From Alphaproteobacteria bacterium (GTDB taxonomy: Bacteria > Pseudomonadota > Alphaproteobacteria > SP197), in contig OZ243917.1 in assembly GCA_965213815.1 (NCBI GenBank), positions 2,345,747 to 2,409,746 of the forward strand: 64,000 bases of DNA. The letters are read 5' to 3'. The position numbers and the translations under genes are program-made. The notes below the pieces were generated by a model. It was not told the origin of the DNA. It worked only from the letters and a program-made list of their open reading frames with translations, and did not search any database. Shown here in pieces: positions 30,535 through 64,000 of this stretch; position 1 is the first letter of the stretch, and the number at the start of each line of letters is the position of its first letter.

Positions 30535-30589
30535 TCATCACCTCGATGTGGGAGCCGCAGCCAGAGCCGAAAATGCCAGCATCGCGCCC

Positions 30590-45034: not shown

Positions 45035-45039
45035 ACACG

Positions 45040-46140
45040 TCACCACCGCAAGGTGATCTGCAGCCCGAAGGTGTGCTGCGGTGCCGTATACTCGCTTTCC
45101 CTGCGTGTCAGGGTCACGCCGACCGAAAGGTCGAGCGCCTCGCTCTCCGGCGTCAGCCGCCACCCCAGCGTGTAGTCGCGCTCGTCCCTGGCAAGGCCGA
45201 ATCCCAGGTGCGGACTGCCGATATACTGACCCTCAAGGAGCGCCATGCCCCACGCGGCCTCCACCTGCCAGCGACTTTCCGTCTCCGCGCCTGAACGGGC
45301 CTCCAGCACCTCCGGCGCAAGCAGGCGGTCAAGCCCGCCCGTCGCCGCACCGCCCGTCTCCTGGCGCAAGGCAAGCGACAGTCCAAGTTCGGAGGCCGGA
45401 TCCGGATCGAAAGCCACTGAAGCCGCATAGCCCCGGTCCTCGAAGTCGTCCGCGGCGTGGCTGATCAGGGTGCGGCCCGAGAGATCGAGACTGAGCCCCA
45501 GACCGGGATCACTCCAGACAATGCCGCCGCCAACCTCCACCCCGGAGCCGGTCTCGGCATCGCCGCCGTCATGGCGCGCACCCACCTCGACCCTGGGCGT
45601 CACACTGCCGTCACCTTCCAGGGCGACCTTCCAGCTCCCCTCCAGACCGAGCCGCAGGCGTGTCACATCGGACTGCGATGCAACAAGCCCTTGCGTCCTG
45701 TCTGACTCTGTCCGCGCCCACAGGGCGTCGGTCGTCAACGCCAGGGCAGGCCCGCTCTCCGGGGCAATCACGTCGCCACGCGCCGCCAGCGCCGCCATGG
45801 TCCAGGAGATGTCCGCCTCCATCTCCTTGCCCTCGCCGGGCTTGAGCGTGACGTCTCCCGTGCCGTGGCCCAGGGCACCCCACACCTTCAACCGCTCCGA
45901 GGCCTGCAATGCCGCATAGGGAACCGCCGCCGTCAGCGACGCCTCCACCGTGCCGCCGTCCTCCTCGTCAGTGCCGGCATAGGCACCCTCGCCGGCACTC
46001 TGCAGCAGCGCCAGACCGACGAGCCACGGACCCCGGGCATAGTCGCCCCCCAGCATGGCCGTCGTGGTCTCGCCAGCAAGCGACAACGACCCTTCCCTGC
46101 CGTCGAAGTCCGAGCGTGCTCCCCGGCCCCACAAGGCAAG
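45040..46140 (-). other. Autotransporter-like beta-barrel translocator domain of the giant protein
   Basis: The segment from ...GGSLALWGRGARSDFDGREGSLSLAGETTTAMLGGDYARGPWLVGLAL... to the terminal ...GLQITLRW shows amphipathic beta-strand periodicity, a terminal aromatic residue, and a WGRG...S...DGD-like opening typical of autotransporter beta-domains. Confidence 0.6.
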
Positions 46141-49100
46141 ACTGCCGCCTCGTGAATCGCTCTCCCCTGTCACCGCGAAGCTGCTGGCAAGCATCACCTC
46201 GCGCATGGTCATGCCTTGAGACTGCGTCCCGGACACATCATCACTCCAGGCATCAGGGCCCGCCGCCAGAGTGGCCGGAGGACTCTGCCCCCCAGTGCCA
46301 AGGCTGAACGCCTGCCCGGCAAGCGTGCCCTCGACACCCGCCGTGCGAGGCGCCGCCATGCGCCCGGCAATGCCGTCGAGTGCCGCTTCAGCCACCGCGC
46401 GTCCGAAGCGCGCCAGCCATGCCGCCGGCATCGGATCCGAATTGATGATGGTGCCCGTCGCCAGTTCGTCCACGATGATGGCGCCCTCTGCCTCGGTCAG
46501 CACGACGGTGAGGGTCTCGCGGCCCTCGTCGTGGAAGTCATCGAAGGTCTCGACCCAGAATTCCCCTCGAGTCGACCCCGGGTAAACGGTCACCCGGCTG
46601 TCGGCGTAGCGGAAATCCGCGTGGGGGATCGCCTCCCCGTAGCTCGGCCCGTGGCCGTTTTCGTCGTCGTGGTAGTTCGCCCCAAATCGGGTCTCCCAGT
46701 AAACGACTACCTCGTGGTCCACCGCATGGGAGAGCGTGAACGTGAAATGCAAATCGTCGCCCTCCGCCGCCTCGACATCGTCAATATGGATCGTCGGCAA
46801 GGACGGCACTTCGTCGTCGGCCACCGCGACGGTGGCGCTGGCATCTGTCGCGTGCGGGGTGTAGCCGGTTCCCGGTTCGACGATAATGGTGAGGCTGCCG
46901 TCGTCTTCAAGCGTCGAGTCGTCGACGGTCGGGATGTCAACGGTGACGGTGGCGTCCGTGCCGAGCGTCACGGGCCGCGCACCGAGCTCTCCGTCCCCGG
47001 CGAAGGCGCCGCTTTGCGTCACGCGCAGGTTCACGGTGATGTCCTGCGAAGGGGCCGGGGCGCCTGTCAGCGTGAAGCGCGCAACGCCCCCTTCGGTGAT
47101 ATCGGCACCGCCGGTGATGCGCACGACGGTCGCCCGAGCGTCATCGTCACCGTCGTTGTCGGCCACCGCCACTGTCGCCGTGGACGGGCTGGCGACCCGG
47201 TAGCCGGTTCCGGCCTCCAGCGTCGCCGACACGCCGCCATTCGCCTCGTCGAGATCGTCATCCGTTGTCGCGAGCGTGTAGGTGGCCGTGTCGCTCCCCG
47301 CGGCGATCGTGACCGTCTTCGATCCCTCCTCGCCATCCGTCAGAAAGTCGCTCACCGCGTCGTCTGCAATGGCCAGCGCGATCTCGAGGTCCGACGCCGG
47401 CGCCGGACTTGCCTGGACGGTGAACACGGCGTCGCCGCCTTCGGTGATGTCGCCGCCGGCCGCAATCGTAATCTCGGGATCGGGGTCGGGGGTGTCGCCT
47501 ATGATCGTGACCCTCGTGTAACACAGGGCGGTCGAGGTGCAATGGGCCGCGGCGGCGTTGAATGGGTAGCTCTTCACGCCGGGGAAACCGCGATCCGGGT
47601 TGCCGAGCCACTGGAGGCTGTCCCAGCTGGCAGTGAAGGTTTTGCCCACGGAACCCTTGCACAACTCGATTTCCAGTTCGATCGTGTCGGTATTGATGTC
47701 CTCGGCGATGCGCACCAGGGGTCCGGTTCTCACCATCCCCTCGGGGTAGGAGGGCCAGTGGCCCCAATCGACCACATCCGTTCCAGGTTCCCTGCAATCG
47801 CCCCCACCCTGGGCCGTGCCGGGGCCCCAATCGAAATAGAAGGCCACATCAATACCGTGGCCTTTCAGACCCGCCGGCACGGGCATCAGGATCCGGCTTT
47901 TTCTGCCGGCATACACCGCCGTGGCCGTCTCAGGTGGCGTGATCCCGCTCACGCGCTCCCGGATCGTGACGACGGCCGTGTCAGGCTCGCCGAGGGTCAC
48001 GGTGCCCGGTAGTTCGGATGCCCGGATTGCCAGCTTGAAGGTCTCATTGGGGTCATTCTGGTTGTCGCGTGTGGTCGGAATGTGCGCCTTCCCGCTCGTT
48101 GTGCCCGCCCGGATCGTGACCGTCTGCACGCCACCAACGTAGTCCGCGCCGGGTGTCGCGCTGTAGCCGCCCGGGCTGGTCGCCTCCAACTCAATCATCG
48201 TATCGGCAGCAGGGGCCTCGGACAGGTTGACCGTCACCGAGAGCGAATCGCCCTCCAGCACCTCGTAGCGCGATGTCGAGAGCGAGACCGTGCCCGCCGG
48301 CCCCGACGCGTCATTGTCGACGATGGTGACCGTGGCCGGGGTAATGGTCAGCGCGCCGAAGGTTCCGGTGACCTCGATCATCTCATCCTCCTCGTGCAGG
48401 GCGTCGTCGGTGGGTGTCAGATCGAATGTGCCGGTCTCGCTGGCATCGCCCGCAGCGATGGTGATGTCGAAATTCGACACCGCGCCGTAATCCGTGCCCG
48501 ATATCGCCGTGCCCCCGCCCACGCTCACCGTCACCGTCTTCGCGTCCACGTAGCGCGTCGTGCCGTTCACGGCGGCCGTCACCGTGATTTGGGTCAATCC
48601 ATCGCCCTCGCCCAGCGTGGCGGGCGACACCGAGAGCGTGATGCCGGTGGGCGGCGCGTCATCGTCGGTGATGGTGAGGGTCTGGTTGTCCGGGTTGGTG
48701 ACGCCCCCGCCGCTGGCGGTGGCCGAGACCGTCACACTCTTGTTCGGCGCGTCCACGTTGTTGTTAACCGCGGTGATCTTCACAGTGCCGGTGCTGGTGG
48801 TCGCACCCGCCGCGATCGTCAGCGTCTTGTTGTTGCTCACCGTGAAATCGCCCGCGACCGTGTTGGCCCCCGCCGCCGCGGCCACCGTCAGGGTCACCGC
48901 CGTGTTGGACTTCCCCGAGAGCATCGCCGTCACCGCGCTCGCGTTCGTCGCGCCGCTCTCATTGATGGTGGTTGGCCTCAACACCAGGGTCACGGTGGGC
49001 GTGCCCTCGTCATCCGTAATGGTGAGTGTCTGATTAGCCGGGTTCGTCACCCCGCCGCCCGACGCCGCGCCCGACACCACGACCGACGCATTCGCCGCAT

Positions 49101-52100
49101 CCACGTCATTGTCCACCGCCGTGATCGTCACCGTGCCGGTGCTGGCCTTCGAGCCCGCCGTGATCGTCAGCGTCTTGTTGGCGCTCAACGTGACCGGGGC
49201 AGTGTTCGGCACCGAGACCTCCACCGTCACCGCCGCACTCGACTCGCCCGACAGCGTTGCCGTCACCGTGCTGGCGTTGCCATTCCCGCTCTCGTTAATC
49301 GTGCCTGGCGTCAACACCAGGGTCACGGTGGGCGTGCCCTCGTCGTCCGTGAGGGTGATGGCTGTCCCGGTGACGGTGACGCCGGTGAGCGTGCCTTCTA
49401 TGCTGATGCTCTCAACGGGCTCGTCTATATCGTCGTCGGCGGGCGTGAGCGTGAAATCCACATAGCCGCTCGACGCCCCTGCGTTGATCGTGATGCTCTT
49501 GCTCGTCACTTCCGTGTAGTCCGTCCCCTCCGTCGCGCCGTCGGCGTCCGGACCCACCTCCACCGTCACCGTCTTGGCCTCGGCGAAGGTCGAGCTGCCG
49601 CCCAGCGTGGCCGTCACCCGCACCATCTTCGCACCGCCATCCTCGGCCAGGGAGGTCTGGGTTCCCATCGTGCCCGTGTCCGCATCCACCGACAGCGTCA
49701 GTGCCGTCGGCACCGCGTCGTCGTCGGTGATCGTGCCGGTGGCCTCGGCATCGCCGATGATGGCGCCGACCGGCTCGGTCAGCTCCACCAGGAAGGTCTC
49801 GTTGCCCTCATGCAGCGTGTCCTCGGTGGTGGCGACCGTGAAGGTCTGGCTGCTCGCGCCGCTGGCGAAATCCAGCTTCGTCGCCGTGGTCATCGCGGTG
49901 TAGTCGGTGGTAGCCGCCGCGCCCGCCCCGGTGGCCGCCTTGGTGTTCCACTTCACCGACACCGCGTTGTCCATGGCACCGCTGCGGGTCACCGTGAAGG
50001 TGATCGTATCGCCCTCATCGGCGCTCGCGTCGGCTACGGCAAATGACGGCTGGCCGTCGTCGTCCGTCAGAGTGAGCGAGGCGTCCGTCACCGTCACGCC
50101 CGTCACCGTCCCGTCCAGACCGATCGTCTCGTTGCCCTCGTGCAGATCGTCCTGCGTCGGCGTCAGGTCGAAGGTGCCCGCTTTGCTTGCATCGCCCGCG
50201 GCGATGGTGATGTCGAAGTTGGCCACCGCGTCGTAGTCCGTGTCCGATGTCGCCGTGCCGCCGCCGACGCTCACTGTGACCGTCTTCGCGTCCACGTAAC
50301 GCGTCGTGCCGTTCACCGTGGCGGTCACCGTGATCTCGGTCTCGCCGGCCCCCTCCCCGACCGTGGCCGGCGACACCGTCAGCGTGATGCCGCTGGGCGT
50401 CGCATCGTCGTCGGTCAGGGTCAGCGAGGTGTCCGTCACCGTCACGCCGGTCAACGTGCCGTCCAGGCTGATCGTCTCGGCGCCCTCGTGCAGCACGTCG
50501 TTGGTCGGCGTGAGGGTGAAATCGTGCGTGACGCTGGCGACTCCAGCGCCGATGGTGATGGTCCGGTCGGCGACGGTTGTGTAGTCGGCGCCTTCCACGG
50601 CGCTGTCACCGTCCTTGCCGACGGCGAGGGTGAGATCCGCGGCCTCCTCGAGGCGGGTGGTCCCATCTAGCGTGGCGGTGACGCGCACGGTCTTGCCGCC
50701 ACCATCCTCGGCGAGGGATGTCTGGACGTTGTCGGTGTCCTTGTCGGCATCGACGGTGAGCGTGATCGCCGGCGCGGCGTCCTCGCTGGTCAGCGTGATG
50801 GTGTCACCGCTGACGGTGACGCCGGCGAGGGCGCCTTCGAGGGAGATGGTCTCGTTCGCCTCGTGGAAGGCATCGTCGGTGGGCGTGATAGTGAAGGTGT
50901 GGGAGGCGCTTTGCGCGTTGGCGCCGATGGTGATGGTCTGGTCGGCGACATCCGTGTAGTCGGTGCCCTCGGTGGCGCTGTCGGCGTCGGCGTCGCCAAC
51001 GATGAGCGTGAGGTCCGTGCTCTTGTCGAAGCGGGTGGCGCCGGAGAGGGTCGCGGTGACGGTAACTGAGGTGGCCCCGGCGTTTTCGGCGAGGGTGTCC
51101 TGGTCGCCCTGCATCGTGCTGTTGGTGTCCACGGTGAGCGTGACGGCCGCGGCAGCATCGTCGCTGGTCAGAGAGATGGAGGCGCCGGCGACGGTGAGCC
51201 GGGCGACGGTGGCGTCGAAGGAGATGGTCTCGCTGGCCTCGTGGAAGGTGTCGTCGGTGGGCGTTAGAGTGAAGGTGTGCTCGACGTCCTGGTCGCCGGC
51301 GGGGATGGTGAGAGTGACGTCGGCGACGTCGGTGTAGTCCGTGCCTTCGGTGGCGCTGTCGGTGTTCTTGCCGACGATCAGCGTGAGGTCCTTGTCTTCG
51401 TCGAACTGGGTCGAGCCGCCGAGCGTGGCGGTGACGCGCACGGTCTTGGCCCCGCCGTTTTCCGCCAGCGAGGACTGAACGTTGTCGGTACCATCGTCGG
51501 CATCGACGGTCAGCGTGAGGGTGGTCGGCGCGGCGTCGTTGTCGGTGATGGATAGCGAGCCGTCGCTGACGGTGAGCCCGGCGAGGCTGCCGTCGAGCGA
51601 GATGGTCTCGCTGGCCTCGTGCCGGGTGTCGTCGGTGGGCGTCAGCGTGAACTCCACGTAGCCGCTTGCGGCGCCCGCATTGATCGGAATGCTCTTGCTC
51701 GTGACCTCCCTGTAGTCGGTGCTCTCCGTGGCGCTGTCGGCATCCGCGCCCACCTCCAACGTCACCGTCTTGGCTTCGACAAACCTCGTCTCGCCAGTGA
51801 TGGTTGCAGTAACCCGGACCGTCTTGGCGCCACCGTTCTCCGCGATGGTTGTCTGCGTGCCGTCCGTGCCCGTGTCCGCGTCCACCGAAATCGTGATTGC
51901 GCCGGGCGCGGCGTCATCGTCGGTGATGGTGACCGTGGTTGGGGTGATGGTCAGACTGCCGGACGTGCCCGCTACGTTGATCGTCTCGTTCGCCTCAGAG
52001 AGGACATCGTTGATGGGCGTCAGGTCGAACGTGCCGGCTTTGCTCGCATCGCTCGCGGCGATGGTGATGTCGAAGTTGTCCACCGCGTCGTAGTCCGTGC

Positions 52101-55100
52101 CCGATATCGCCGTGCCGCCGCCCACGCTCACCGTCACGGTCTTGGCGTCCGCGTAGCGCGTGGTGCCGTTTACGGTGGCCGTCACGGTGATTTCGGTCTC
52201 GCTGTCCTCCTCGCCTACCGCAGTGGGCGACACCGAAAGCGTGATGCCGGAGGGCGCGGCGTCGTCGTCGGTGATGGTCAGGGTCTGACTGGCCGGGTTG
52301 GCGACGTCCCTGCCGCTGGCGGTGGCCGAGACCGTCACCGTCTTGTTCGGGGCGTCCACGTCATTGTCCACCGCCGTGATCGTCACCGCGCCGGTACTGG
52401 CCTTCGAGCCCGCCGCGATGGTCAGGGTGGTGTTGCCACTCAACGTGACCGGGGCATCGTTCGGCACCGAGACCGTCACCGTCACCGCGGCGCTGGACTC
52501 GCCCGACAGCATTGCCGTCACCGTGCTGGCGTTGTCATCCCCGCTCTCGTCGATGGTGGTTGGCGTCAACACCAGCGTCACCGTGGGCGTGCCCTCGTCG
52601 TCCGTGATAGTGAGGGTCTGGTCGGCCGGGTTAGCAACGCCGCCGCCGCTGGCGGTGGCCGAAACCGTCACGCTCTTGTTCGGCGCGTCCACGTCATTGT
52701 CCACCGCCGTGATCGTCACCGCGCCGGCGCTGGTGGTCGCACCCGCCGCGATGGTCAGAGTCGTGGTGGCGCTCAACGTGAAATCGGCCGCAGCGGTGTT
52801 GGCGCCTGCCGCCGTTGCCACCGTCAGGGTCACCGCCGCGTTGGACTTGCCCGACAGCGTCGCCTTCACCGTGCTCGAGTTCGTCGCGCCGCTCTCGCTG
52901 ATAGAGGCTGGCGTCAGCACCAGGGTGGCCGTCGGGACGCCCTCGTCGTCGTTGATCGTCAGGGTCTGATTGTCCGGGTTGGCGACGCCTCCGCCGCTGG
53001 CGACGGCGGAAACCGTCACACTCTTGTTCGGCGCGTCAATGTCATTGTCCACCGCAGTGATCGTTACCGTGCCGGCGCTGGTGGTCACACCCGCCGCAAT
53101 CGTCAGGGTCTTGTTGGTGGTCACCGTGAAATCGCTCGCGACCGTGTCCGCGCCCGCCGCCGCGGCCACCGTCAGGGTCACCGCAACGCTCGACTTGCCC
53201 GACAACGTCGCCGTCACTGTGCTGGCGTTGCCATTCCCGCTCTCGTTGATGGCGGTTGGCGTCAGCACCAGGGTGACCGTCGGCGTAGTTTCATCGTCCG
53301 TGAGGGTGATGGCCGTGCCGGTGACGATGATGCCGGTCAGCGTGCCTTCAATGCTGATGCCCTCACTGGGCTCGTCTATGTCGTCGTCGGTAGGCGTGAG
53401 CGTGAAATCCACATAGCCGCTCAAGGAGCCCGCATCGATCGTGATGCTCTTGCTCGTGACCTCCGTGTAGTCCGTGCCCTCCGTCGCGCCGTCGGCGTCC
53501 GGACCCACCTCCACCGTCACCGTCTTGGCCTCGGTGAAGGTCGAGCTGCCGCCCAGCGTGGCCGTCACCCGCACCATCTTCGCACCGCCATCCTCGGCCA
53601 GGGAGGTCTGGGTTCCCATCGTGCCCGTGTCCGCATCCACCGACAGCGTCAGTGCCGTCGGCACCGCGTCGTCGTCGGTGATGGTGCCGGTGGCTTCGGC
53701 ATCGCTGATAATGCCGCCGACCGGCTCGGTCAGCTCCACCAGGAAGGTCTCGTCGCCCTCGTGCAGGGTGTCCTCGGTGGTGGCGACCGTGAAGGTCCGG
53801 CTGCTCGCGCCCTTGGCGAAATCCAGCTTCGTCGCCGTGGTCATCGCGGTGTAGTCGGTGGTAGCCGCCGCGCCCGCCCCGGTGGCCGCCTTGGTGTTCC
53901 ACTTCACCGACACCGCGTTGTCCATGGCACCGCTGCGGGTCACCGTGAAGGTGATCGTATCGCCCTCATCGGCGCTCGCGTCGGCTACGGCAAATGACGG
54001 CTGGCCGTCGTCGTCGGTGAGCGAGATCTCGGCTTTGGTGATTGTGAGCGCGCCCGAGGTGCCGGTGACGTCAATCGTCTCGCTGCCCTCGTGCAGATCG
54101 TCGTCGGTGGGCGTCAGGTCGAACGTGCCGGCCTTGCTCGCATCGCCCGCGGCGATGATGATGTCGAAGTTCGACACGGCGTCGTAGTCCGTGCCCGATA
54201 TCGCCGTGCCGCCACCGACGCTCACCGTCACCGTCTTCGCGTCCACGTAACGCGTGCTGCCATTCACCGTGGCGGTCACCGTGATCTCGGTCTCGCCGGC
54301 CCCCTCGCCCACCGTGGCCGGTGACACCGTCAGCGTGATGCCGCCGGGCGCCGCGTCATCGTCCGTCAGCGTGATCGTGGCGTCCGTCACCGTCACGCCG
54401 GTCAGCGTCCCGTCCAGGCTGATCGTCTCGCTGCCCTCATGCAGCACGTCCTGCATCGGCGTCAGCGTGAAATCGTGTGTGACGCTGGCGACTCCGGCGC
54501 CAATGGTGATGGTCCGGTCGGCGACGGTTGTGTAGTCGGTGCCTTCCACAGCGCTGTCGCCGTCCTTGCCGACGGCCAGCGTGAGGTCCGCGGCCTCTTC
54601 AAGGCGGGTGGTTCCATCGAGAGTCGCAGTAACGCGCACAGTCTTCACACCGCCGTCCTCGGCGAGGGATGTCTGCACGTTGCCGGTGTCCTTGTCGGCA
54701 TCGACAGTGAGTGTGATCGCCGGTGCGGCATCGTCGCTGGTCAGCGTGATACTGGCGCCGGTCACGACAACGCTGGCGAGAGTGACGTCGAAGGAGATCG
54801 TCTCGCTCGCCTCGTTGAAGGCGTCGTCGGTGGGCGTGAGCATGAAGGTGTGCTCAACGTCCTGGTCGCCGGCGGGGATGGTGAGGGTGACGTCGGCGAC
54901 GTTCGTGTAGTCCGTGCCTTCGGTGGCGCTGTCATCGTCGTCGCCGACGATTAGCGTCAAGGTCTTGTCTTCGTCGAACTGGGTCGAGCCGCCGAGCGTG
55001 GCGGTCACCTTGACGGTCTTCGCGCCGCCATTCTCGGCAAGCGAAGACTGGACGTTCTCGGCGTCGTCATCGGCGTCAACCGCGAGCGTGAGTGTTGTCG

Positions 55101-58100
55101 GAGCCGCGTCGTTATCGGTGAGCGAGAGGGAAACGTTGATGACAGTAACGCCGTCAAGGGCGCCCTCGAAGCTGATGGTTTCGCTGGTTTCGTGTCGGGT
55201 GTCGTCGATAGGCGTGAGCGTGAACTCCACATAGCCGCTCGACGCCCCAGCATTGATCGTGATGCTCTGTGTGCCCACATTGGTATAGTCCGTCCCCTCC
55301 GTGGCGCTGTCGGCGTCCGCGCCCACTTCCACTGTTACCGTCTTGGCCTCGGTGAAGGTTGAACTACCGCTCAGTGTCGCCGTCACTCGTACCGTCTTGG
55401 CGCCGCCGCCCTCCGCCAGCGAGGTCTGCACACCGTTCGTGTTCGTGTCCGCATCCACCGACAGCGTCAGTGCCGTCGGCGCCCCGTCGTCATCCGTCAG
55501 CGTGATCGTGGCGTCCGTCACCGTCACGCCGGTCAGCGTGCCGTCCAGGCTGATCGTCTCACTCCCCTCGTGCAGCGTGTCCTGCATCGGCGTCAGCGGG
55601 AAGTCCACGTACCCGCTTGAGGAGCCCGCATTGATCGTGATGCTCTGTGTGCCGACATTGGCATAGTCCGTCCCCTCCGTGGCGCTGTCGGCGTCCGCGC
55701 CCACTTCCACTGTTACCGTCTTGGCCTCGGTGAAGGTCGAGTTACCGCCCAGGGTCGCCGTAACCCGCACCGTCTTGACGCCGCCGTCCTCGGCAATGGT
55801 TGTCTGCGTGCCGTCCGTGCTGGTGTCCGCATCCACCGACAGCGTCAGTGCCGTCGGCACCGCGTCGTCGTCGGTGATCGTGCCGGTGGCCTCGGCATCG
55901 CCGATGATGGCGCCGACCGGCTCGGTCAGCTCCACCAGGAAGGTCTCGTTGCCCTCATGCAGCGTGTCCTCGGTGGTGGCGACCGTGAAGGTCTGAGTCT
56001 CCACGCCCTTGGCGAAATCCAGCTTCGTCGCCGTGGTCATCGCGGTGTAGTCGGTGGTAGCCGCCGCGCCCGCCCCGGTGGCCGCCTTGGTGTTCCACTT
56101 CACCGACACCGCGTTGTCCATGGCACCGCTGCGGGTCACCGTGAAGGTGATCGTATCGCCCTCCGACGCGCTGGCGTCGGCCACGGCAAACGAAGGCTCG
56201 GTGTCGTCGTTCTTGATCGTGCCGATGGCCGTGCCCTTGCCCGTCTCAATGCTTACCCCGGTGCCCGGATCGTCCTCCCCAAGCGCCGGCGCGCTCAAGA
56301 CCGCCCGGAACGTCTCGTCCGGCTCGAACAGGTCGTCCTGCGTCGTCTGCACCTCCACCGTCTGGCTGGTGACGCCCTTGGCAAAGTTCAACGTCTGCGC
56401 CGCGGCGATGGCGGTGTAGTCGTCCGTGCCGGCGGCTTTGACGCCGTCACCACTATCCGCCGCCGTCGCGATCTTCACCTCCGCCACGTTGTCTTCGGCC
56501 CCGGCGCGGCTCACGGTGAAGGTCACCTTGCCGCCCTCGGTGGCCTCCGCATCGGCAATCGAGAAGCTCACCGGGGCGTCGGTGTCGGTGAGGGTCACCA
56601 TCGCGCCGGTGATCGTGATGTCGGTGAGCGTGCCCGTCACGTCGATCGTCTCGTTGGCCTCGTCCAGGTCGTCGTCCACCGGCGTCACGGTGAAGCTGCC
56701 GGTCTGGCTGGCCGCGCCCGCGGCAATGGTGATGTTGAAGCCGCTCACCGCCGCATAGTCGGCGGGTGACGCCGCGGTGTCGTCCGCCACGCTCACCGCC
56801 ACGGTCTTGGCGTCCACGTAGCGCGTGGTGCCGTTCACCGTCGCCGTCACCGTCACCACCGTCGCCCCGGCATCCTCCGCCACCGTGCTCGGCGTGCCCG
56901 AGGTCGAACCGTTCGTGTCCACGGTCAACGTGATGCCGGTGGGAGCCGCATCGTCGTCGTTGATCGTGCCGGTGGCCTCGGCATCGCTGATGATGGCGCC
57001 GACCGGTTCGGTCAGCTCCACCAGGAAGGTCTCGTTGCCCTCATGCAGCGTGTCCTCGGTGGTGGCGACCGTGAAGGTCTGGCTGCCCACGCCCTTGGCG
57101 AAATCCAGCTTCGTCGCCGTGGTCATCGCGGTGTAGTCGGTGGTCGAGGCCGCACCCGCCCCGGTGGCCGCCTTGGTGTTCCACTTCACCGACACCGCGT
57201 TGTCCATGGCGCCGCTGCGGGTCACCGTGAAGGTGATCGCATCGCCCTCCGCCGCGCTGGCGTCCGCCACCGCGAACGAGGGCTGCGCATCGTCGTCGGT
57301 GAGCGTGAGCGAAGTGTCCGTCACCGTCACGCCGGTCAGCGTCCCGTCCAGGCTGATCGTTTCGCTGCCCTCGTACAGGTCGTCGTTGGTGGGCGTGAGC
57401 GTGAAATCATCTGTGACGCTGGCGACCCCGGCGCCGATGGTGATGGTCCGGTCGGCGACGTTGGCGTAGTCGGTGCCTTCCACAGCGCTGTCGCTGTTCT
57501 TGCCGACGGCCAGCGTGAGATCCGCGGCCTCCTCGAGGCGGGTGGTGCCGTCCAGCGTCGCGGTCACCCGCACGGTCTTCACGCCGCCGTCCTCGGCCAG
57601 GGATGTCTGGATGTTGTCGGTGTCCTTGTCGGCGTCAACTGTCAGCGTGATGGCCGGCGCGGCGTCCTCGCTGGTCAGCGTGATGCTGGCGCCGGTGACG
57701 ATGACGCTGGCGAGGGTCGCGTCGAAGGAGATGGTCTCGTTGTCCTCGCGGAAAGCGTCGTCGGTGGGCGTGAGGGTGAAGATGTGCTCAACGTCCTGGT
57801 CGCCGGCGGGGATGGTGAGGGTGACGTCGGCGACGTTCGTGTAGTCCGTGCCTTCGTTGGCGCTGTCATCGTCGTCGCCGACGATCAGCGTCAAGGTCTT
57901 GTCAACGTCGAACTGGGTCGAGCCGCCGAGCGTGACGGTTACCTTGACGGTCTTCGCGCCGCCGTTCTCGGCGAGCGAGGACTGGACGTTCTCAGCGTTG
58001 TTATCGGCATCGACGGCGAGCGTGAGGGTGGTCGGGGCCGCGTCGTCGTTGGTGATGGTGCCGGTGGCCTCGGCATCGGCAATCGTGGCACCGACCGGCT

Positions 58101-61100
58101 CGGTCAGCTCTATCAGGAAGGTCTCATCGGCCTCGTTCAGCGTGTCCTCGGTGGTGGCGACCGTAAACGTCTGAGTGCCCACGCCCTTGGCGAAATCCAG
58201 CTTCGTCGCCGTGGTCATCTCGGTGTAGTCGCTGGTCGAAGCCGCGCCCGCCCCGCTCGCCGCCTTGGTGTTCCACTTCACCGACACCGCGTTGTCCATC
58301 GCCCCGCTGCGAGTCACCGTGAAGGTGATCGCATCGCCCTCCGACGCGCTCGCATCGGCCACCGCAAACGACGGTTGAGCGTCGTCGTCTTCAAGGGTGA
58401 TCGAAGCCTTGGTGATGGTGAGCGTGCCGGAGACGCCGGTCACGTCAATCGTCTCGCTGCCCTCGTGCAGGTCGTCGTCGGTGGGCGTCAGGTCGAACGT
58501 GCCGGTGTGGCTGGCGGCGCCCGCGGCGATGGTGATGTCGAAGTTGGCCACCGCGTCGTAGTCCGTGTCCGATGTCGCCGTGCCGCCGCCGACGCTCACT
58601 GTCACCGTCTTCGCGTCCACGTAACGCGTCGTGCCGTTCACCGTGGCGGTCACCGTGATCTCGGTCTCGCCGTCCCCCTCCCCGACCGTGGCCGGCGACA
58701 CCGTCAGCGTGATGCCACTCGGCGCGGCGTCATCGTCGGTGATGGTGCCGGTGGCCTGGGCCGTGGCGATCGTGGCGCCAACCGCCCCGGTCAGCTCCAC
58801 CAGGAAGGTCTCGTCGTCCTCGTCCAGCACATCCTCGGTGGTGGCGACCGTGAAGGTCTGGCTGCTTGCGCCCTTGGCGAAGGTCAGCGTCCGCGCCGTC
58901 GTTACCGGCGTGTAGTCGCTGGGAAATGCCGCGTTCGCCTCAGCGCCGGAGTCCGAGCTGGTGTTCCACTTCACCGACACCACGTTGTCCATGGCCCCGC
59001 TGCGGGTCACCGTGAAGGTGATGGCGTCGCCCTCCGACGCGCTGGCGTCCGCCACCGCGAACGACGGCTGGGTGTCGTCGTTCTTGATCGTGCCGATGGC
59101 CGTGCCCTTGCCCGTCTCAATGCTCACCCCGGTGCCCGGGTCCCCGTCGCCCAGCGCCGGGGCGCTCAGCACCGCCCGGAACGTCTCGTCCGGCTCGAAC
59201 AGGTCGTCTTGCGTGGTCTGCACCTCGACCGTCTGGCTGGTGGTCCCGGCGGTAAAGTTCAACGTCTGCGCCGCGGCGATGGCGGTGTAGTCGTCCGCGT
59301 CGGCGGCATTGACGCCGTCGCCCGAGTCCGCCGTAGTCGCAATCTTCACCTCCGCCACGTTGTCCTCAGCCCCGGCGCGGCTCACCGTGAAAGTGACCTT
59401 GCCGCCCTCGGTGGCCTCGGCATCGGCAATCGAGAAACTCACCGGGGCGTCGGTGTCGGTCAGCGTTACCGTCGCGGCGGTGATCGTGATGTCGGTGAGT
59501 GTGCCCGTGACATCGATCGTCTCGTTGGCCTCGTCGAGGTCGTCGTCCACCGGCGTTACAGTGAAACTGCCGGTGTGGCTGGCGGCACCCGCGGCAATCG
59601 TGATGTTGAAGCCGCTCACCGCCGCATAGTCCGCCGGGGAGGCGGCTGTGCCGTCCGCTACGCTCACCGTCACGGTCTTGGCGTCCACGTAGCGCGTGGT
59701 GCCGTTCACCGTGGCCGTGACCGTGACCACCGTGGCCCCGGCGTCCTCGGCCACCGTGCTCGGCGTGCCGTCCTCGGCGCCGTTGGTGTCCACGCTCAGC
59801 GTGATGCCGCTCGGCGCCGCGTCATCGTCCGTGATGGTGATGGTGGCGTCGGTAAACGTGATGTTGGCCTGCGTGCCATGCACGCTGATGGTCTCGTTCG
59901 GCTCGTCGAGCACATCGGAGGTGGGCGTGAGGGTAAAGTCCACGTAACCACTGGCGGCACCCCCGTCAATCGTGATGGTGAGGGTGCCGACCTCGGTGTA
60001 GTCCGTGTCTTCCGTGGCGGAGTCCGCCGACTTGCCTACTTCGAATGTGACCGCCTGGTTGGCCGAAAAGCGCGTGGCGCTGGTGATGGTCGCGGTAACC
60101 CGTACCGTGGTGGCCCCGGCTTCCTCGCCCACACTGGTCGGCGTGCCGTTCCCGCCAGCGTTGGTGTCCACGGTCAGGGTAATGAATTCCGGCGCAGCGT
60201 CATCGTCGTTGATCGTGATTGTGGCCGGGGTGAAGGTAACGCCGGTCAGCTCGCCATCGACGCTTATGGTCTCATTCGTTTCGTCAAGGACGTCCTGTGT
60301 GGGAGCGAGGGAAAAGTCCACATAGGCGCTTGTCGCGCCAGCGGGGATATTGATGTTCTGGTCCGCCACCAGTGCGTAGTCCGTGCCTTCCGCGGCGGAG
60401 TCCCCGTCCTTGCCCACCTTCACCTTGACCGTTTGCTCGGTGGCAAAGCGCGTGGCGCTGGTGATGGTCGCGATGACTCGCACCGTGGTGGCCGCGGCCC
60501 CCTCGGCCAACGTGGTCGGTGTGCCGTCCCCTCCGGCGTTGGTGTCCACCGACAGCGTAATCGCGCTGGGCGCCGCGTCATCATCCGTGATGGTGATGGA
60601 GGAATTGGTGAACGTGACGCCGGTGAGCGTGCCGTCCACGCTGATGGTCTCGCTGCCCTCGAACAGCACGTCGGTGGTGGGCGTGAGCATGAACTCCACG
60701 TAGGCGCTGGCCGCGCCGATGGGAATTTCGATGCTCTGCTGGTCCACCGTGGCGTAGTCCGTGCCTTCCGTGGCGGAGTCTCCGTCCTTGCCCACCGTTA
60801 CCGTGACCGTCTGCGCGGTGGCAAAGCGCGTGGTGCCGTTGATGGTGGCAGTGACCCGCACCGTCTTGACGCCGCCTTCTTCGGCAATGCTGCTCTGCAC
60901 GTTGTTCGTGCCGGTGTCCGCATCCACCGACAGGGTGATCGCGCCGGGCGCGGCGTCGTCGTCCGTGATGGTGATGGCGGTATTGGTGAACGTGACGTCG
61001 GTGAGCGTTCCCTCCACGCTGATGGTTTCGCTTCCCTCGGACAGCACGTCGGTGGTGGGCGTGAGCGGGAAGTCCACGTAGGCGCTGGCCGCGCCGATGG

Positions 61101-63999
61101 GTATTTCGATGCTCTGCGCCGCTACGTTGGAATAGTCCGTGCCCTCCGTGGCGGAGTCGCCGTCCTTGCCCACCGTTACCGTGACCGTCTGCGCGGCGGC
61201 AAAGCGTGTGGCGCCGTTGATGGTGGCCGTGACCCGCACCGTCTTGACACCGCCTTCCTCGGCAATACTGCTCTGCACGTTGTTGGTGGCGGTGTCCGCA
61301 TCCACCGACAGGGTGATGCCGGTGGGGGCGGCGTCATCGTCAGTGATGGTGCCGGTGGCCTCGGCGGTGGCAATCGTGCCGCCCACCGCTCCGGTCAGCT
61401 CCACCAGGAAGGTCTCGTCGCCCTCGGCCAGCACGTCCTCGGTGGTGGCGACCGTGAAGGTCTGGCTGCTCACGTCCCTGGCGAAGTTCAGCACAGTCGC
61501 CGCTGTGACCGGCGTGTAGTCGGTGGCCGAAGCCGCGCCCGCTCCGCTGTCCGGCTTGGTGTTCCACTTCACCGACACCGCGTTGTCCATCGCCCCGCTC
61601 CGGGTCACCGTGAAGGTGACGCCGTTTCCTTCCGTGGCACTGGCATCGGCCACGGCAAACGACGGCTCGGTGTCGTCGTTCTTGATTGTCCCGGTGGCCG
61701 TGCCCTTGCCCGTGGCGATGCTCACCCCGGTGCCTGGGTCGTCCTCCGCCAGCGCCGGGGCGCTCAACACCGCCAGGAACGTCTCGTCCGGCTCGAACAG
61801 GTCGTCCTGTGTGGTCTGTACCTCCACGGTCTGACTGGCGACGCCCTTGGCAAAGTTCAACGTCTGCGCCGTGGCGATGGCGGTGTAATCGTCCGCATCG
61901 GCGGCATTGACCCCATCGCCGCTGTCCGTGGCCGTGGTTACTTTAACCGCCGCCACGTTATCCCCGGCCCCGGCGCGGCTCACCATGAAGGTCACCTTGC
62001 CGCCCTCGGTGGCCTCCGCATCAGCAATCGAGAAGCTCACCGGGTCGTCGTTGTCGGTGAAGGTTACTGTTGCGCCGGTGACCGTGACGCTGCTCAGCGT
62101 GCCCGTAACGTCGATCGTCTCGTTAGGTTCGTCGAGGTCATCGTCCACCGGCGTCACAGTGAAACTGCCAACCTGGCTGGCCGCGCCCGCGGCAATAGTG
62201 ATGTTGAAGTTGCTCACCGCCGCATAGTCGGCGGGCGATGCCGCGGTGCCGTCCGCCACGCTCACCGCCACAGTTTGTGCCTCCACATAGCGCGTGTCGC
62301 CGTTCACCGTGGCCGTCACGGTAACCTCTGTGGCGCCGGCGTCCTCGGCCACCGTGCTCGGCGCGCCGTCCCCGGCGCCGTTGGTGTCCACGCTCAACGT
62401 GATGCCGCTCGGCGCCGCGTCATCGTCCGTGAGAGTGATCTCATCAGGCGTTATCGTGATGCCGGACAGGGTTCCCGTAACGCCGATGGTCTCGTTGCCC
62501 TCGGCCAGCACGTCATTGTCGGGGGTGAGGGTGAAGGTGTTGCTCGCGTCGTCCTCGCCCACGCCTATGGTGATGTCGAAACTTTCCACGGCCGTGTAGT
62601 CCGTGCCGGAGATGGCCGTGCCGCCGCCCACGCTCACCGATACGGTCTGGGCCTGCGCGTAGCGGGTGGCGCCGTTCACCGCGGCGGTAACGGTGATGGT
62701 TTTGGCGCCGCCGTTCTCCGTGACCGAGTCGGGATTCGCCGTGAGAGTGATGCCGCTGGGGGCGGCGTCATCGTCGGTCACAGTCACCGCCACTCCCTCG
62801 ACAGTTTCGTCGGCGTAATCCGTCCCCACGGCGCTCACCGTGTGGGCGATGGTGGTGGCGCGCGCGTTGCCGGTGTTGTCGATGACGTCGGCTTGGCCGG
62901 TAACGGTCACCGTGCGTTCCGAATTCCAGTCGTCGGCGTCGAAGACCAGGCTCGCCGTATCGATCCTGGCCACGGACTCATCGCCGCTTTTCAGGTTGAC
63001 CGTTACCGCGCCGGTGGGCTCGCTTGTGAGCACCACCTTGTAGGTTTCCTGGTCCTCCCTTTCATCGGCGGTGCCCGTGTTGTCCGCCTCGGCCACGGTC
63101 AATGCCGTGGGAGTGATGCTGACGCCGCGGGTATCGTCATCCGTGATCGTCCCGCTGGCGGCGCCCGCGCCTTCGGCCGTCGAGACCGTGGCGTTTGTCG
63201 GCGTGCCCAGCGTGACCGTGATCGTTTCGTTTTCCTCGTCCACCTCATCGCCGGCCACGGGGATTACGATGCTCGCCTGCGTCTGCCCCGCGGCGATCAT
63301 CACGGAGCGCGGGTCGGGCTCGGTGTAGTCCGTGCCTGCCGTGGCCGTGCCGCTCAGCGTGTAGGGCACCGTCACGGTCCGGCCGCTGGCGGCCGAGAGC
63401 GTGACGGCGAAGGTCATGTTGGTGGGCGGATCGGGGGCCGCCACGTCGCCTTCGGTCACCGCCGCGGCGTCGGCGACGGATACCGTGGGCGTGGGGTCGT
63501 TGTCATTGATGGTTCCCGTGCCGTCCAGCGTGGTGGCGCCGCCCGTCAGTGTGGCATTGGAAGGCGAGGACAGGCGCACGACTACTGTCTCGTCGAGTTC
63601 ATCGATGGCATCGCCGCTCACCGTGACCGCCACGGGCTTGCTGGTCTCGCCGGGAGCGAAGGTCAGCATGCCGCTGGCCAGGGTCGCGTAGTCCGTGCCG
63701 CCCGAGGTTGCGGTGCCGGTGCCGGCGTCCGCGTAGTCCACGGTCACCTGTTTGTCGCTTGCCGGGGTCAGCCGCACGGTGAAGGTGAGCGTTGCCGTGG
63801 CGCGACCGTCCACCTCCATCACGGACGGGCTGTTGATGGACAGCGTCGACGGGCCATCGTCGTCATTGACCGTGACCGTCACATCGCTTGCCGATGCGCC
63901 GTCGTAATCCGTCCCCGTGGCGGTCACGGTATGGGTAATGGCGGCGGTGCGCCGGTCCATCTCGTTGTCGATACCGTCAGCCACCGCGGTCACCGTCAC
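45040..63999 (-). CDS. Giant Calx-beta-repeat surface protein with C-terminal autotransporter-type beta-barrel, 5'-partial (N-terminus beyond window)
   Basis: There is a single uninterrupted minus-strand frame of 6319 codons running to the window edge. It contains dozens of ~100-130-aa repeats with the Calx-beta signature (...TATSGTDY..V....T.G.........D...E.DETF.V.L......ATI....ATGTI.DDD...). The C-terminal ~360 aa have alternating hydrophobic beta-strand character and end ...HTFGLQITLRW, which is typical of type Va autotransporter translocator domains. Confidence 0.85.
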   Translation of the reverse strand: MTVTAVADGIDNEMDRRTAAITHTVTATGTDYDGASASDVTVTVNDDDGPSTLSINSPSVMEVDGRATATLTFTVRLTPASDKQVTVDYADAGTGTATSGGTDYATLASGMLTFAPGETSKPVAVTVSGDAIDELDETVVVRLSSPSNATLTGGATTLDGTGTINDNDPTPTVSVADAAAVTEGDVAAPDPPTNMTFAVTLSAASGRTVTVPYTLSGTATAGTDYTEPDPRSVMIAAGQTQASIVIPVAGDEVDEENETITVTLGTPTNATVSTAEGAGAASGTITDDDTRGVSITPTALTVAEADNTGTADEREDQETYKVVLTSEPTGAVTVNLKSGDESVARIDTASLVFDADDWNSERTVTVTGQADVIDNTGNARATTIAHTVSAVGTDYADETVEGVAVTVTDDDAAPSGITLTANPDSVTENGGAKTITVTAAVNGATRYAQAQTVSVSVGGGTAISGTDYTAVESFDITIGVGEDDASNTFTLTPDNDVLAEGNETIGVTGTLSGITITPDEITLTDDDAAPSGITLSVDTNGAGDGAPSTVAEDAGATEVTVTATVNGDTRYVEAQTVAVSVADGTAASPADYAAVSNFNITIAAGAASQVGSFTVTPVDDDLDEPNETIDVTGTLSSVTVTGATVTFTDNDDPVSFSIADAEATEGGKVTFMVSRAGAGDNVAAVKVTTATDSGDGVNAADADDYTAIATAQTLNFAKGVASQTVEVQTTQDDLFEPDETFLAVLSAPALAEDDPGTGVSIATGKGTATGTIKNDDTEPSFAVADASATEGNGVTFTVTRSGAMDNAVSVKWNTKPDSGAGAASATDYTPVTAATVLNFARDVSSQTFTVATTEDVLAEGDETFLVELTGAVGGTIATAEATGTITDDDAAPTGITLSVDADTATNNVQSSIAEEGGVKTVRVTATINGATRFAAAQTVTVTVGKDGDSATEGTDYSNVAAQSIEIPIGAASAYVDFPLTPTTDVLSEGSETISVEGTLTDVTFTNTAITITDDDAAPGAITLSVDADTGTNNVQSSIAEEGGVKTVRVTATINGTTRFATAQTVTVTVGKDGDSATEGTDYATVDQQSIEIPIGAASAYVEFMLTPTTDVLFEGSETISVDGTLTGVTFTNSSITITDDDAAPSAITLSVDTNAGGDGTPTTLAEGAAATTVRVIATITSATRFATEQTVKVKVGKDGDSAAEGTDYALVADQNINIPAGATSAYVDFSLAPTQDVLDETNETISVDGELTGVTFTPATITINDDDAAPEFITLTVDTNAGGNGTPTSVGEEAGATTVRVTATITSATRFSANQAVTFEVGKSADSATEDTDYTEVGTLTITIDGGAASGYVDFTLTPTSDVLDEPNETISVHGTQANITFTDATITITDDDAAPSGITLSVDTNGAEDGTPSTVAEDAGATVVTVTATVNGTTRYVDAKTVTVSVADGTAASPADYAAVSGFNITIAAGAASHTGSFTVTPVDDDLDEANETIDVTGTLTDITITAATVTLTDTDAPVSFSIADAEATEGGKVTFTVSRAGAEDNVAEVKIATTADSGDGVNAADADDYTAIAAAQTLNFTAGTTSQTVEVQTTQDDLFEPDETFRAVLSAPALGDGDPGTGVSIETGKGTAIGTIKNDDTQPSFAVADASASEGDAITFTVTRSGAMDNVVSVKWNTSSDSGAEANAAFPSDYTPVTTARTLTFAKGASSQTFTVATTEDVLDEDDETFLVELTGAVGATIATAQATGTITDDDAAPSGITLTVSPATVGEGDGETEITVTATVNGTTRYVDAKTVTVSVGGGTATSDTDYDAVANFDITIAAGAASHTGTFDLTPTDDDLHEGSETIDVTGVSGTLTITKASITLEDDDAQPSFAVADASASEGDAITFTVTRSGAMDNAVSVKWNTKAASGAGAASTSDYTEMTTATKLDFAKGVGTQTFTVATTEDTLNEADETFLIELTEPVGATIADAEATGTITNDDAAPTTLTLAVDADNNAENVQSSLAENGGAKTVKVTVTLGGSTQFDVDKTLTLIVGDDDDSANEGTDYTNVADVTLTIPAGDQDVEHIFTLTPTDDAFREDNETISFDATLASVIVTGASITLTSEDAAPAITLTVDADKDTDNIQTSLAEDGGVKTVRVTATLDGTTRLEEAADLTLAVGKNSDSAVEGTDYANVADRTITIGAGVASVTDDFTLTPTNDDLYEGSETISLDGTLTGVTVTDTSLTLTDDDAQPSFAVADASAAEGDAITFTVTRSGAMDNAVSVKWNTKAATGAGAASTTDYTAMTTATKLDFAKGVGSQTFTVATTEDTLHEGNETFLVELTEPVGAIISDAEATGTINDDDAAPTGITLTVDTNGSTSGTPSTVAEDAGATVVTVTATVNGTTRYVDAKTVAVSVADDTAASPADYAAVSGFNITIAAGAASQTGSFTVTPVDDDLDEANETIDVTGTLTDITITGAMVTLTDTDAPVSFSIADAEATEGGKVTFTVSRAGAEDNVAEVKIATAADSGDGVKAAGTDDYTAIAAAQTLNFAKGVTSQTVEVQTTQDDLFEPDETFRAVLSAPALGEDDPGTGVSIETGKGTAIGTIKNDDTEPSFAVADASASEGDTITFTVTRSGAMDNAVSVKWNTKAATGAGAAATTDYTAMTTATKLDFAKGVETQTFTVATTEDTLHEGNETFLVELTEPVGAIIGDAEATGTITDDDAVPTALTLSVDADTSTDGTQTTIAEDGGVKTVRVTATLGGNSTFTEAKTVTVEVGADADSATEGTDYANVGTQSITINAGSSSGYVDFPLTPMQDTLHEGSETISLDGTLTGVTVTDATITLTDDDGAPTALTLSVDADTNTNGVQTSLAEGGGAKTVRVTATLSGSSTFTEAKTVTVEVGADADSATEGTDYTNVGTQSITINAGASSGYVEFTLTPIDDTRHETSETISFEGALDGVTVINVSLSLTDNDAAPTTLTLAVDADDDAENVQSSLAENGGAKTVKVTATLGGSTQFDEDKTLTLIVGDDDDSATEGTDYTNVADVTLTIPAGDQDVEHTFMLTPTDDAFNEASETISFDVTLASVVVTGASITLTSDDAAPAITLTVDADKDTGNVQTSLAEDGGVKTVRVTATLDGTTRLEEAADLTLAVGKDGDSAVEGTDYTTVADRTITIGAGVASVTHDFTLTPMQDVLHEGSETISLDGTLTGVTVTDATITLTDDDAAPGGITLTVSPATVGEGAGETEITVTATVNGSTRYVDAKTVTVSVGGGTAISGTDYDAVSNFDIIIAAGDASKAGTFDLTPTDDDLHEGSETIDVTGTSGALTITKAEISLTDDDGQPSFAVADASADEGDTITFTVTRSGAMDNAVSVKWNTKAATGAGAAATTDYTAMTTATKLDFAKGASSRTFTVATTEDTLHEGDETFLVELTEPVGGIISDAEATGTITDDDAVPTALTLSVDADTGTMGTQTSLAEDGGAKMVRVTATLGGSSTFTEAKTVTVEVGPDADGATEGTDYTEVTSKSITIDAGSLSGYVDFTLTPTDDDIDEPSEGISIEGTLTGIIVTGTAITLTDDETTPTVTLVLTPTAINESGNGNASTVTATLSGKSSVAVTLTVAAAAGADTVASDFTVTTNKTLTIAAGVTTSAGTVTITAVDNDIDAPNKSVTVSAVASGGGVANPDNQTLTINDDEGVPTATLVLTPASISESGATNSSTVKATLSGKSNAAVTLTVATAAGANTAAADFTLSATTTLTIAAGATTSAGAVTITAVDNDVDAPNKSVTVSATASGGGVANPADQTLTITDDEGTPTVTLVLTPTTIDESGDDNASTVTAMLSGESSAAVTVTVSVPNDAPVTLSGNTTLTIAAGSKASTGAVTITAVDNDVDAPNKTVTVSATASGRDVANPASQTLTITDDDAAPSGITLSVSPTAVGEEDSETEITVTATVNGTTRYADAKTVTVSVGGGTAISGTDYDAVDNFDITIAASDASKAGTFDLTPINDVLSEANETINVAGTSGSLTITPTTVTITDDDAAPGAITISVDADTGTDGTQTTIAENGGAKTVRVTATITGETRFVEAKTVTLEVGADADSATESTDYREVTSKSIPINAGAASGYVEFTLTPTDDTRHEASETISLDGSLAGLTVSDGSLSITDNDAAPTTLTLTVDADDGTDNVQSSLAENGGAKTVRVTATLGGSTQFDEDKDLTLIVGKNTDSATEGTDYTDVADVTLTIPAGDQDVEHTFTLTPTDDTFHEASETISFDATVARLTVAGASISLTSDDAAAAVTLTVDTNSTMQGDQDTLAENAGATSVTVTATLSGATRFDKSTDLTLIVGDADADSATEGTDYTDVADQTITIGANAQSASHTFTITPTDDAFHEANETISLEGALAGVTVSGDTITLTSEDAAPAITLTVDADKDTDNVQTSLAEDGGGKTVRVTATLDGTTRLEEAADLTLAVGKDGDSAVEGADYTTVADRTITIGAGVASVTHDFTLTPTNDVLHEGAETISLDGTLTGVTVTDTSLTLTDDDATPSGITLTVSPATVGEGAGETEITVTATVNGTTRYVDAKTVTVSVGGGTATSDTDYDAVANFDITIAAGDASKAGTFDLTPTQDDLHEGNETIGLDGTVTGVTVTDASLTLTDDDGQPSFAVADASADEGDTITFTVTRSGAMDNAVSVKWNTKAATGAGAAATTDYTAMTTATKLDFASGASSQTFTVATTEDTLHEGNETFLVELTEPVGAIIGDAEATGTITDDDAVPTALTLSVDADTGTMGTQTSLAEDGGAKMVRVTATLGGSSTFAEAKTVTVEVGPDADGATEGTDYTEVTSKSITINAGASSGYVDFTLTPADDDIDEPVESISIEGTLTGVTVTGTAITLTDDEGTPTVTLVLTPGTINESGNGNASTVTATLSGESSAAVTVEVSVPNTAPVTLSANKTLTITAGSKASTGTVTITAVDNDVDAANASVVVSGAASGGGVTNPANQTLTITDDEGTPTVTLVLRPTTINESGATNASAVTAMLSGKSNTAVTLTVAAAAGANTVAGDFTVSNNKTLTIAAGATTSTGTVKITAVNNNVDAPNKSVTVSATASGGGVTNPDNQTLTITDDDAPPTGITLSVSPATLGEGDGLTQITVTAAVNGTTRYVDAKTVTVSVGGGTAISGTDYGAVSNFDITIAAGDASETGTFDLTPTDDALHEEDEMIEVTGTFGALTITPATVTIVDNDASGPAGTVSLSTSRYEVLEGDSLSVTVNLSEAPAADTMIELEATSPGGYSATPGADYVGGVQTVTIRAGTTSGKAHIPTTRDNQNDPNETFKLAIRASELPGTVTLGEPDTAVVTIRERVSGITPPETATAVYAGRKSRILMPVPAGLKGHGIDVAFYFDWGPGTAQGGGDCREPGTDVVDWGHWPSYPEGMVRTGPLVRIAEDINTDTIELEIELCKGSVGKTFTASWDSLQWLGNPDRGFPGVKSYPFNAAAAHCTSTALCYTRVTIIGDTPDPDPEITIAAGGDITEGGDAVFTVQASPAPASDLEIALAIADDAVSDFLTDGEEGSKTVTIAAGSDTATYTLATTDDDLDEANGGVSATLEAGTGYRVASPSTATVAVADNDGDDDARATVVRITGGADITEGGVARFTLTGAPAPSQDITVNLRVTQSGAFAGDGELGARPVTLGTDATVTVDIPTVDDSTLEDDGSLTIIVEPGTGYTPHATDASATVAVADDEVPSLPTIHIDDVEAAEGDDLHFTFTLSHAVDHEVVVYWETRFGANYHDDENGHGPSYGEAIPHADFRYADSRVTVYPGSTRGEFWVETFDDFHDEGRETLTVVLTEAEGAIIVDELATGTIINSDPMPAAWLARFGRAVAEAALDGIAGRMAAPRTAGVEGTLAGQAFSLGTGGQSPPATLAAGPDAWSDDVSGTQSQGMTMREVMLASSFAVTGESDSRGGSLALWGRGARSDFDGREGSLSLAGETTTAMLGGDYARGPWLVGLALLQSAGEGAYAGTDEEDGGTVEASLTAAVPYAALQASERLKVWGALGHGTGDVTLKPGEGKEMEADISWTMAALAARGDVIAPESGPALALTTDALWARTESDRTQGLVASQSDVTRLRLGLEGSWKVALEGDGSVTPRVEVGARHDGGDAETGSGVEVGGGIVWSDPGLGLSLDLSGRTLISHAADDFEDRGYAASVAFDPDPASELGLSLALRQETGGAATGGLDRLLAPEVLEARSGAETESRWQVEAAWGMALLEGQYIGSPHLGFGLARDERDYTLGWRLTPESEALDLSVGVTLTRRESEYTAPQHTFGLQITLRW
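48000..63999 (-). repeat. Tandem array of Calx-beta-domain coding repeats (several sub-families; 378-bp periodicity in places; higher-order near-identical copies at 3951-bp offset)
   Basis: Antisense spurious ORFs of near-identical sequence recur at 60383, 60761 and 61139 (378-nt spacing). Strings of at least 60 nt are identical at 49990 and 53941, and about 600 bp align with few mismatches at a 3951-bp offset. Related blocks recur near 56.1, 57.2, 58.3 and 59.0 kb. Confidence 0.85.
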
Positions 64000-64000
64000 C

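Follow-up and report, generated by a model that had tools for sequence, protein, structure and literature searches.

Adhesins such as LapA, SiiE, MpIBP and the BapP/Cab proteins vary in length with repeat number, and in the group B streptococcal alpha C/Rib proteins, SasG/Aap and Esp, intragenic homologous recombination alters repeat number and protein size. Tandem modules of Calx-beta-like type, joined by DxD linkers, occur in Ca2+-dependent adhesins (PMC12153261). Calx-beta domains are enriched in sponge symbionts (PMC9531527, PMC11706023), and the sponge aggregation factor is rich in them as well (PMC5400394). Here we analysed 64,000 nucleotides from an alphaproteobacterium (NCBI GenBank assembly GCA_965213815.1, contig OZ243917.1, positions 2,345,747 to 2,409,746 of the forward strand; this whole stretch is called the window), in which one giant gene carries near-identical DNA repeats. 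These repeats are, with good confidence, the coding DNA of tandem Calx-beta-type modules that were block-duplicated in register and patched by gene conversion, in a giant barrel-anchored surface protein. In-frame domain repeats that recombine with one another in a giant adhesin are a well-known phenomenon; the locus is ordinary biology and no new kind of element.

Results

Module composition of the giant gene

We found that all repeats lie inside a single open reading frame (ORF) on the minus strand (45040-63999), which has at least 6,319 codons without an internal stop and Pfam Calx-beta matches along its length; its N-terminus is beyond the window end. All modules and tracts described below are on this strand. 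The ORF encodes 47 Calx-beta-like modules of 108-124 residues each, followed by a helix and a beta-barrel. A repeat-derived profile detected 46 modules, and the 47th was assigned to the sole module-sized gap. When the modules were clustered at 50% identity into types A to L, their order from N- to C-terminus was ABCDDEFGGGGDEFDFGGFDEFGGGGDFGHHHDGGGGDFGHHDIJKL. The spacers are 0-3 residues long through module 44, and an acidic linker of the type T-[IL]-T-D-D-D-A-A-P stands at 43 of the 46 module junctions, so the modules are in frame and in register with each other. Segments of the ORF scored 67-235 bits against Calx-beta (PF03160), above the Pfam gathering score of 27 bits. Single modules of types E (46.9), F (44.2) and I (31.9) also exceeded this score, single D modules were borderline (23.5-26.7 bits), and G, H, C and L modules taken singly fell below it. 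The Calx-beta fold was found for module G, the commonest type (16 of 47).

Readings of the repeats as CRISPR, satellite or mobile-element sequence were ruled out by the unbroken reading frame. For annotation, this means that the repeats are coding and in frame, and that masking or labelling them as satellite or CRISPR is unwarranted. Long plus-strand ORFs are also present (48082-50046 and 51619-53997; 654 and 792 residues), together with an AT skew of -0.25 to -0.30 over 48000-64000. We took these ORFs for antisense artefacts that arise from a GC-rich repeat, since it is the minus frame that has the Pfam matches, the homologues and the ratios of nonsynonymous to synonymous divergence (dN/dS) below 1. 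Both the antisense ORFs and the skew are by-products of a GC-rich coding strand rich in Thr, Asp, Ala, Gly and Val codons. The GC content of the gene is 67%, compared with 57-64% in its flanks.

Repeats in the DNA

Repeated 30-mers numbered 876 in 45001-64000 and 0 in 1-45000, showing that the repeats are restricted to the gene. A preliminary sequence-only reading of the window had pointed out identical strings at 49990 and 53941, and the quoted 75-mer indeed has two exact copies (49990-50064 and 53941-54015), where shuffled sequences gave an expectation of 0. It is contained in the longest exact repeat of the gene, which spans 202 bp (49863-50064 and 53814-54015). The surrounding ~600 bp had been described as aligned with scattered mismatches, and this description was accurate: at the offset of 3,951 bp, identity was 527/539 (97.8%) over 49526-50064 and 94.6% over the wider span 49330-50064, and it fell abruptly at 50065. 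Copy 1 of this near-identical tract (49526-50064) covers module F39 and the first half of G40, and copy 2 (53477-54015) covers F28 and the first half of G29. The tract is nested in a 3.4-kb repeat (48575-51938 versus 52514-55889) of 80.2% identity, as revealed by self-BLAST of 44-64 kb, which returned many more repeats at offsets that are multiples of ~333-378 bp. The related copies noticed earlier near 55.7-56.2, 57.0-57.3 and 58.2-59.1 kb turned out to be F-type modules with their neighbours (55864-56196, 56950-57282, 58042-58374 and 58729-59067), among which there are exact runs of 173, 160 and 154 bp. Tandem Repeats Finder recovered the 378-bp unit that had been noted before, at 50669-51651 and 59732-61351, and a period of 348 bp at 52472-53284.

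Repetition occurs at three levels: single modules, a DEF cassette in three copies and an 11-module block in two. At the first level, G runs repeat at 378 bp and H runs at 333-348 bp; examples are a four-G run (59821-61326), in which G8 and G9 share 87% protein identity, a three-H run (52261-53283) and a second H run of two modules (48658-49332). The DEF cassettes comprise modules 5-7 (61333-62412), 12-14 (58729-59814) and 20-22 (55864-56943), with 83-86% nucleotide identity among the three. The block consists of modules 23-33 (GGGGDFGHHHD, 51913-55857) in its N-proximal copy and modules 34-43 (GGGGDFGHHD, 48310-51906) in its C-proximal copy, the former having one extra H; the copies are 80% identical in nucleotides and account for the 3.95-kb offset. 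Since multi-unit blocks recur as blocks and their copies are more alike than adjacent units, the gene holds a higher-order tandem repeat array. The most similar modules are never adjacent, with protein identity of at most 87% between neighbours and up to 95% between non-adjacent modules.

Recombination between modules

Between the two block copies, dN/dS was 0.1-0.44, and the modules are therefore under purifying selection as protein. Synonymous divergence was 0.36-1.16 for most module pairs, compared with 0.06 for F28/F39 and 0.17 for G29/G40. Selection on the protein cannot erase synonymous differences, and the F28/F39 tract has therefore been homogenised recently. An ungapped alignment of F39, F28 and F22 further revealed that F39 is a mosaic, which is F28-like up to 49675, then identical to F22 for 173 bp, and then F28-like again up to 50064. 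In the sub-tract at 49676-49848, F39 equals F22 (55823-55995) and differs from F28 at nine consecutive informative sites, a run of incompatible sites that was matched by 0 of 200,000 permutations of site order (p<5e-6). The upstream edge of the near-identical tract, in the coding sense, coincides with the codons of a TDDDGQPS linker. We recognise gene conversion by two signs, phylogenetically incompatible sites that lie in clusters and synonymous divergence that collapses locally. Both were found, and these sequence patterns indicate short-tract gene conversion between paralogous modules.

We considered whether the near-identity could instead be a residue, left by a recent duplication of the whole block followed by fast divergence elsewhere, or a tract held by selection on protein or DNA, in either case without conversion. 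F is the most conserved module type throughout the gene (88-95% protein identity), as this explanation would expect. However, protein selection cannot explain a roughly 20-fold spread of synonymous divergence within one block, and the switching of F39 from F28 to F22 and back to F28 is incompatible with one duplication history. Furthermore, orthologues in other genomes are closer to most of the other modules than anything within this gene, which implies that the block duplication predates the corresponding splits. We therefore regard a residual origin of the near-identity as very improbable.

Only F19, F22, F28, F39, G25, G26 and G40 are closer to a sister module in their own gene than to the six related genes described below, and G29 is tied. 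For 35 of the 39 remaining modules, another genome contains the best match (74-99% nucleotide identity); nothing matches C3, and the only match of A1 and B2 is in a relative. Wholesale concerted evolution is ruled out, with 35 of all 47 modules nearest to another genome. The array is therefore old and has been patched locally, not homogenised wholesale.

Related genes in other genomes

Homologues were retrieved with the non-repeated tail (modules I-L) and the barrel as query. Two of them (L001 and L002) are in a long-contig ENA metagenome assembly, and others are in chromosome-scale metagenome-assembled genomes (MAGs), namely Alphaproteobacteria OZ244041.1 (two copies), Rhodospirillales OZ243926.1 and the gammaproteobacterial Candidatus (Ca.) Poriferihabitaceae OZ243941.1. 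The six related genes have the same module types in differing numbers and orders; for example, the number of H modules ahead of the terminal D is 2, 3, 5, 6 or 8. Over the 3' third of the array and the flank downstream of it, L002 and L004 are collinear at 97.8% identity, but further upstream their arrays differ. The downstream flanks of L001 and L005 are 99.0% identical and their arrays differ, the array of L001 resembling that of the other paralogue, L004 (95.4% over 13.4 kb). The earlier suggestion that recombination gives size variation of the surface protein is thus supported, in part indirectly, by the F mosaic, the uneven synonymous divergence, the eight modules closest to or tied with a sister module, and the differing arrays: repeat number differs between related genomes even where flanks are 98-99% identical, a difference seen in sister lineages.

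All six relatives share 89.7-95% DNA identity with window 46310-49358 and about 66-69% across the barrel (45036-46204). This sharp breakpoint at 46204-46310, between module L and the helix and barrel, suggests that passenger and barrel may differ in history. In OZ243941.1 (L006), positions 1-13861 match window 57258-62947 with 90% DNA identity over 5.7 kb, and the GC content of the gene is 67% versus 57% in its flank; the likeness and the GC contrast indicate a probable recent horizontal transfer between classes.

Several relatives have irregularities of their own. Frame changes split the gene into 4,511, 1,121 and 685 residues in L001 (~9606-9638 and ~13140) and into 4,800 and 1,721 residues in L002 (~10014-10085), and these split genes are either pseudogenes or assembly errors. 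Directly downstream of the giant gene in L002, two tyrosine-integrase genes (15150-17483) hint that this locus is on or beside a mobile element. In L005 (OZ244041.1 copy 2), the 5' end of the 4,349-residue ORF (401-1100) is Arg/Pro-rich and looks non-coding, and a 170-bp direct repeat starts at positions 1 and 199; this gene may start elsewhere or be truncated.

Two integrase genes next to a related gene are what one might expect if the changes were driven by programmed variation, such as a diversity-generating retroelement, silent donor cassettes or a site-specific shufflon. In the window, however, blastn and tblastn searches of 1-45000 found no silent module copies, the mismatches between near-identical copies are of all types and not adenine-specific, and ClpS/ClpA lie directly downstream of the gene, with no recombinase seen on the downstream side within the window. 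Programmed variation is thus hardly credible as the driver.

Assembly of the array

The sequence-only reading had also warned that near-identical repeats are an assembly hazard. The gene has five exact repeats longer than 127 bp (147-202 bp), and 1.7% of 127-mers are non-unique, so that a short-read de Bruijn assembly could be tangled here; a short-read graph could fragment or misjoin at the array, which paired or long reads resolve. That part of the warning stands, but every 203-mer is unique and the best repeat identity is 91.6% over 1 kb and 82% over 2 kb. For checking the quality of an assembly, this means that a single read or read pair that exceeds ~200 bp of unique context is enough to resolve the array.

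On this basis we weighed the explanation that the assembler created or collapsed the 3.95-kb duplication, or the module order, at near-identical repeats. The exact repeats are longer than usual k-mer sizes, and the frame breaks in the related L001 and L002 could be assembly errors. Against this, the block copies are just 80% identical and one of them has an H module that the other lacks, no stop interrupts the ORF over 6,319 codons, and at the junctions D33>G34 and F22>G23 the window is collinear with the independent genomes L007 and L004. Independent chromosome-scale relatives also show every junction type of the window apart from two, B>C and C>D, both of which include module C, a module specific to the window. 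In addition, the ParC protein encoded in the window matches, at 100% identity, a protein encoded on a contig of 3,853,775 bp; the window probably comes from this 3.85-Mb contig, whose size suggests an assembly of long-read scale. A false duplication is unlikely because the block copies are 20% diverged and differ by one whole module, and the module count is probably right. Overall, we judge an assembly artefact to be quite unlikely.

C-terminal barrel, passenger tail and flanking genes

The C-terminal 466 residues (45040-46440) are predicted to form an alpha-helix and then an outer-membrane beta-barrel, ending in ...ITLRW. The nearest folds to the helix and barrel are type Va autotransporter translocators, although the barrel region of ~380 residues has ~18 predicted strands versus 12 in type Va autotransporters. 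Searches with this domain returned no Pfam family at E<=10 (including the autotransporter beta-domain PF03797), no sequence relative in the PDB and nothing usable in NCBIfam. By eye only, the homologues P0008, P0016 and P0027 start with signal-peptide-like sequences. The folds thus lead us to predict a giant surface protein of autotransporter-like build, anchored by its barrel and with a stalk of Calx-beta modules. By sequence, it falls outside formal membership of the Autotransporter family. The barrel domain matched 6,990 cluster representatives, 2,805 of them at E<=1e-30, and ended at most 3 residues from the C-terminus in 149 of the 150 matches listed, in proteins of 515-7,300 residues. 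A JGI metagenome scan with the C-terminal protein found no relative. The barrel family is large, uncurated, autotransporter-like and without a Pfam model, and it seems to be common in sponge symbionts; it is this family, rather than the repeats, that deserves attention.

Between the array and the barrel is a non-repeated passenger tail (46435-48300) made of module I (47959-48300), insert X (47485-47958), module J (47152-47484), module K (46813-47133) and module L (46435-46797). Insert X is a Cys-containing segment of 158 residues that is strongly conserved in the closest homologues P0001-P0003, and searches of Pfam, NCBIfam and PDB sequences gave nothing usable for it, with no Pfam match.

The neighbours of the giant gene are ordinary chromosomal genes, encoding ClpS and ClpA directly downstream, a FemAB-like protein, ABC transporters, RelA/SpoT and ParC, whose relatives bear alphaproteobacterial names. 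A 129-kb contig from a sister strain (L003, ctg122957_31x_l) is 99.4% identical to window 26029-30609 (RelA, rpoZ); the similarity ends entirely beyond 30609, reflecting a strain-level indel or rearrangement, and the contig therefore offers no second assembly of the array. The MAGs that carry relatives of the gene have names referring to sponge symbionts or are typical of such symbionts, and the host is probably a sponge-symbiont alphaproteobacterium.

Discussion

We propose that beta-sandwich modules of Calx-beta type form an extended passenger, which would be anchored in the outer membrane by the autotransporter-like barrel. Unequal homologous recombination, presumably RecA-type and acting in module register, would have duplicated single modules, the DEF cassette (three copies) and the 11-module block (two copies). 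The block duplication would be old and the ~540-bp near-identity a later patch, which arose when gene conversion copied short tracts between F and G modules that are not adjacent. Module number and order would change between related genomes through the same process, and with them the length and composition of the exposed stalk. Its linkers may be rigidified by Ca2+, and a role in adhesion or host interaction is conceivable.

Our direct observations are the anatomy of the array, the protein folds, the F39 mosaic, the uneven synonymous divergence and the way in which arrays differ among relatives. Some points weigh against our interpretation: recombination was read from sequence patterns and protein function from folds, the correctness of the array and its variability in this lineage were judged from assembled sequence and from relatives, and the orthology of L001 with L005 and of L002 with L004 is based on the downstream flank only. 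If the interpretation holds, the locus illustrates cleanly how in-register recombination rebuilds a giant surface protein: each module is old and conserved, and what changes is how many there are and in which order they stand.

A wider idea is that the modules may be a pool of cassettes shared horizontally among co-resident sponge symbionts of different classes, whose reshuffling would tune a stalk that interacts with the host's aggregation factor, itself rich in Calx-beta domains, or imitates it. Passenger stretches are 90-95% identical in DNA between the window and both other alphaproteobacterial MAG chromosomes and the gammaproteobacterial Ca. Poriferihabitaceae, the GC content of 67% in the gene contrasts with 57-64% in flanks, and the drop from ~95% to ~68% near 46310 can be cited for independent barrel swapping. 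We consider this idea speculative and rather unlikely.

Turning back to in-register duplication and conversion in a barrel-anchored protein, the domain is the same Calx-beta domain as in the "eukaryotic-like" proteins of sponge symbionts and in the sponge aggregation factor, although the papers on these report domain counts without this gene architecture or repeat dynamics. Like LapA, SiiE, MpIBP and the BapP/Cab proteins, the protein has tens of tandem beta-sandwich modules of ~100-125 residues with acidic DxD-type linkers. Those adhesins are secreted by the type I route and carry an RTX signal at the C-terminus and a retention module at the N-terminus. The present protein ends in a beta-barrel, and its LapA-domain matches (PF20579, 21-25.4 bits) are below the Pfam threshold of 27, so that it is not classed as RTX/LapA-type. 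The protein also differs from the type Va autotransporters EstA, NalP, AIDA-I and Hbp, having no PF03797 match at E<=10, about 18 predicted barrel strands instead of 12, and a passenger that is a string of Calx-beta modules, not a beta-helix. Finally, adjacent repeats are nearly identical in alpha C/Rib, SasG/Aap and Esp. In the present gene, by contrast, neighbouring modules usually belong to different types and do not exceed 87% identity, and distances of 2-8 kb separate the closest modules (93-95%).
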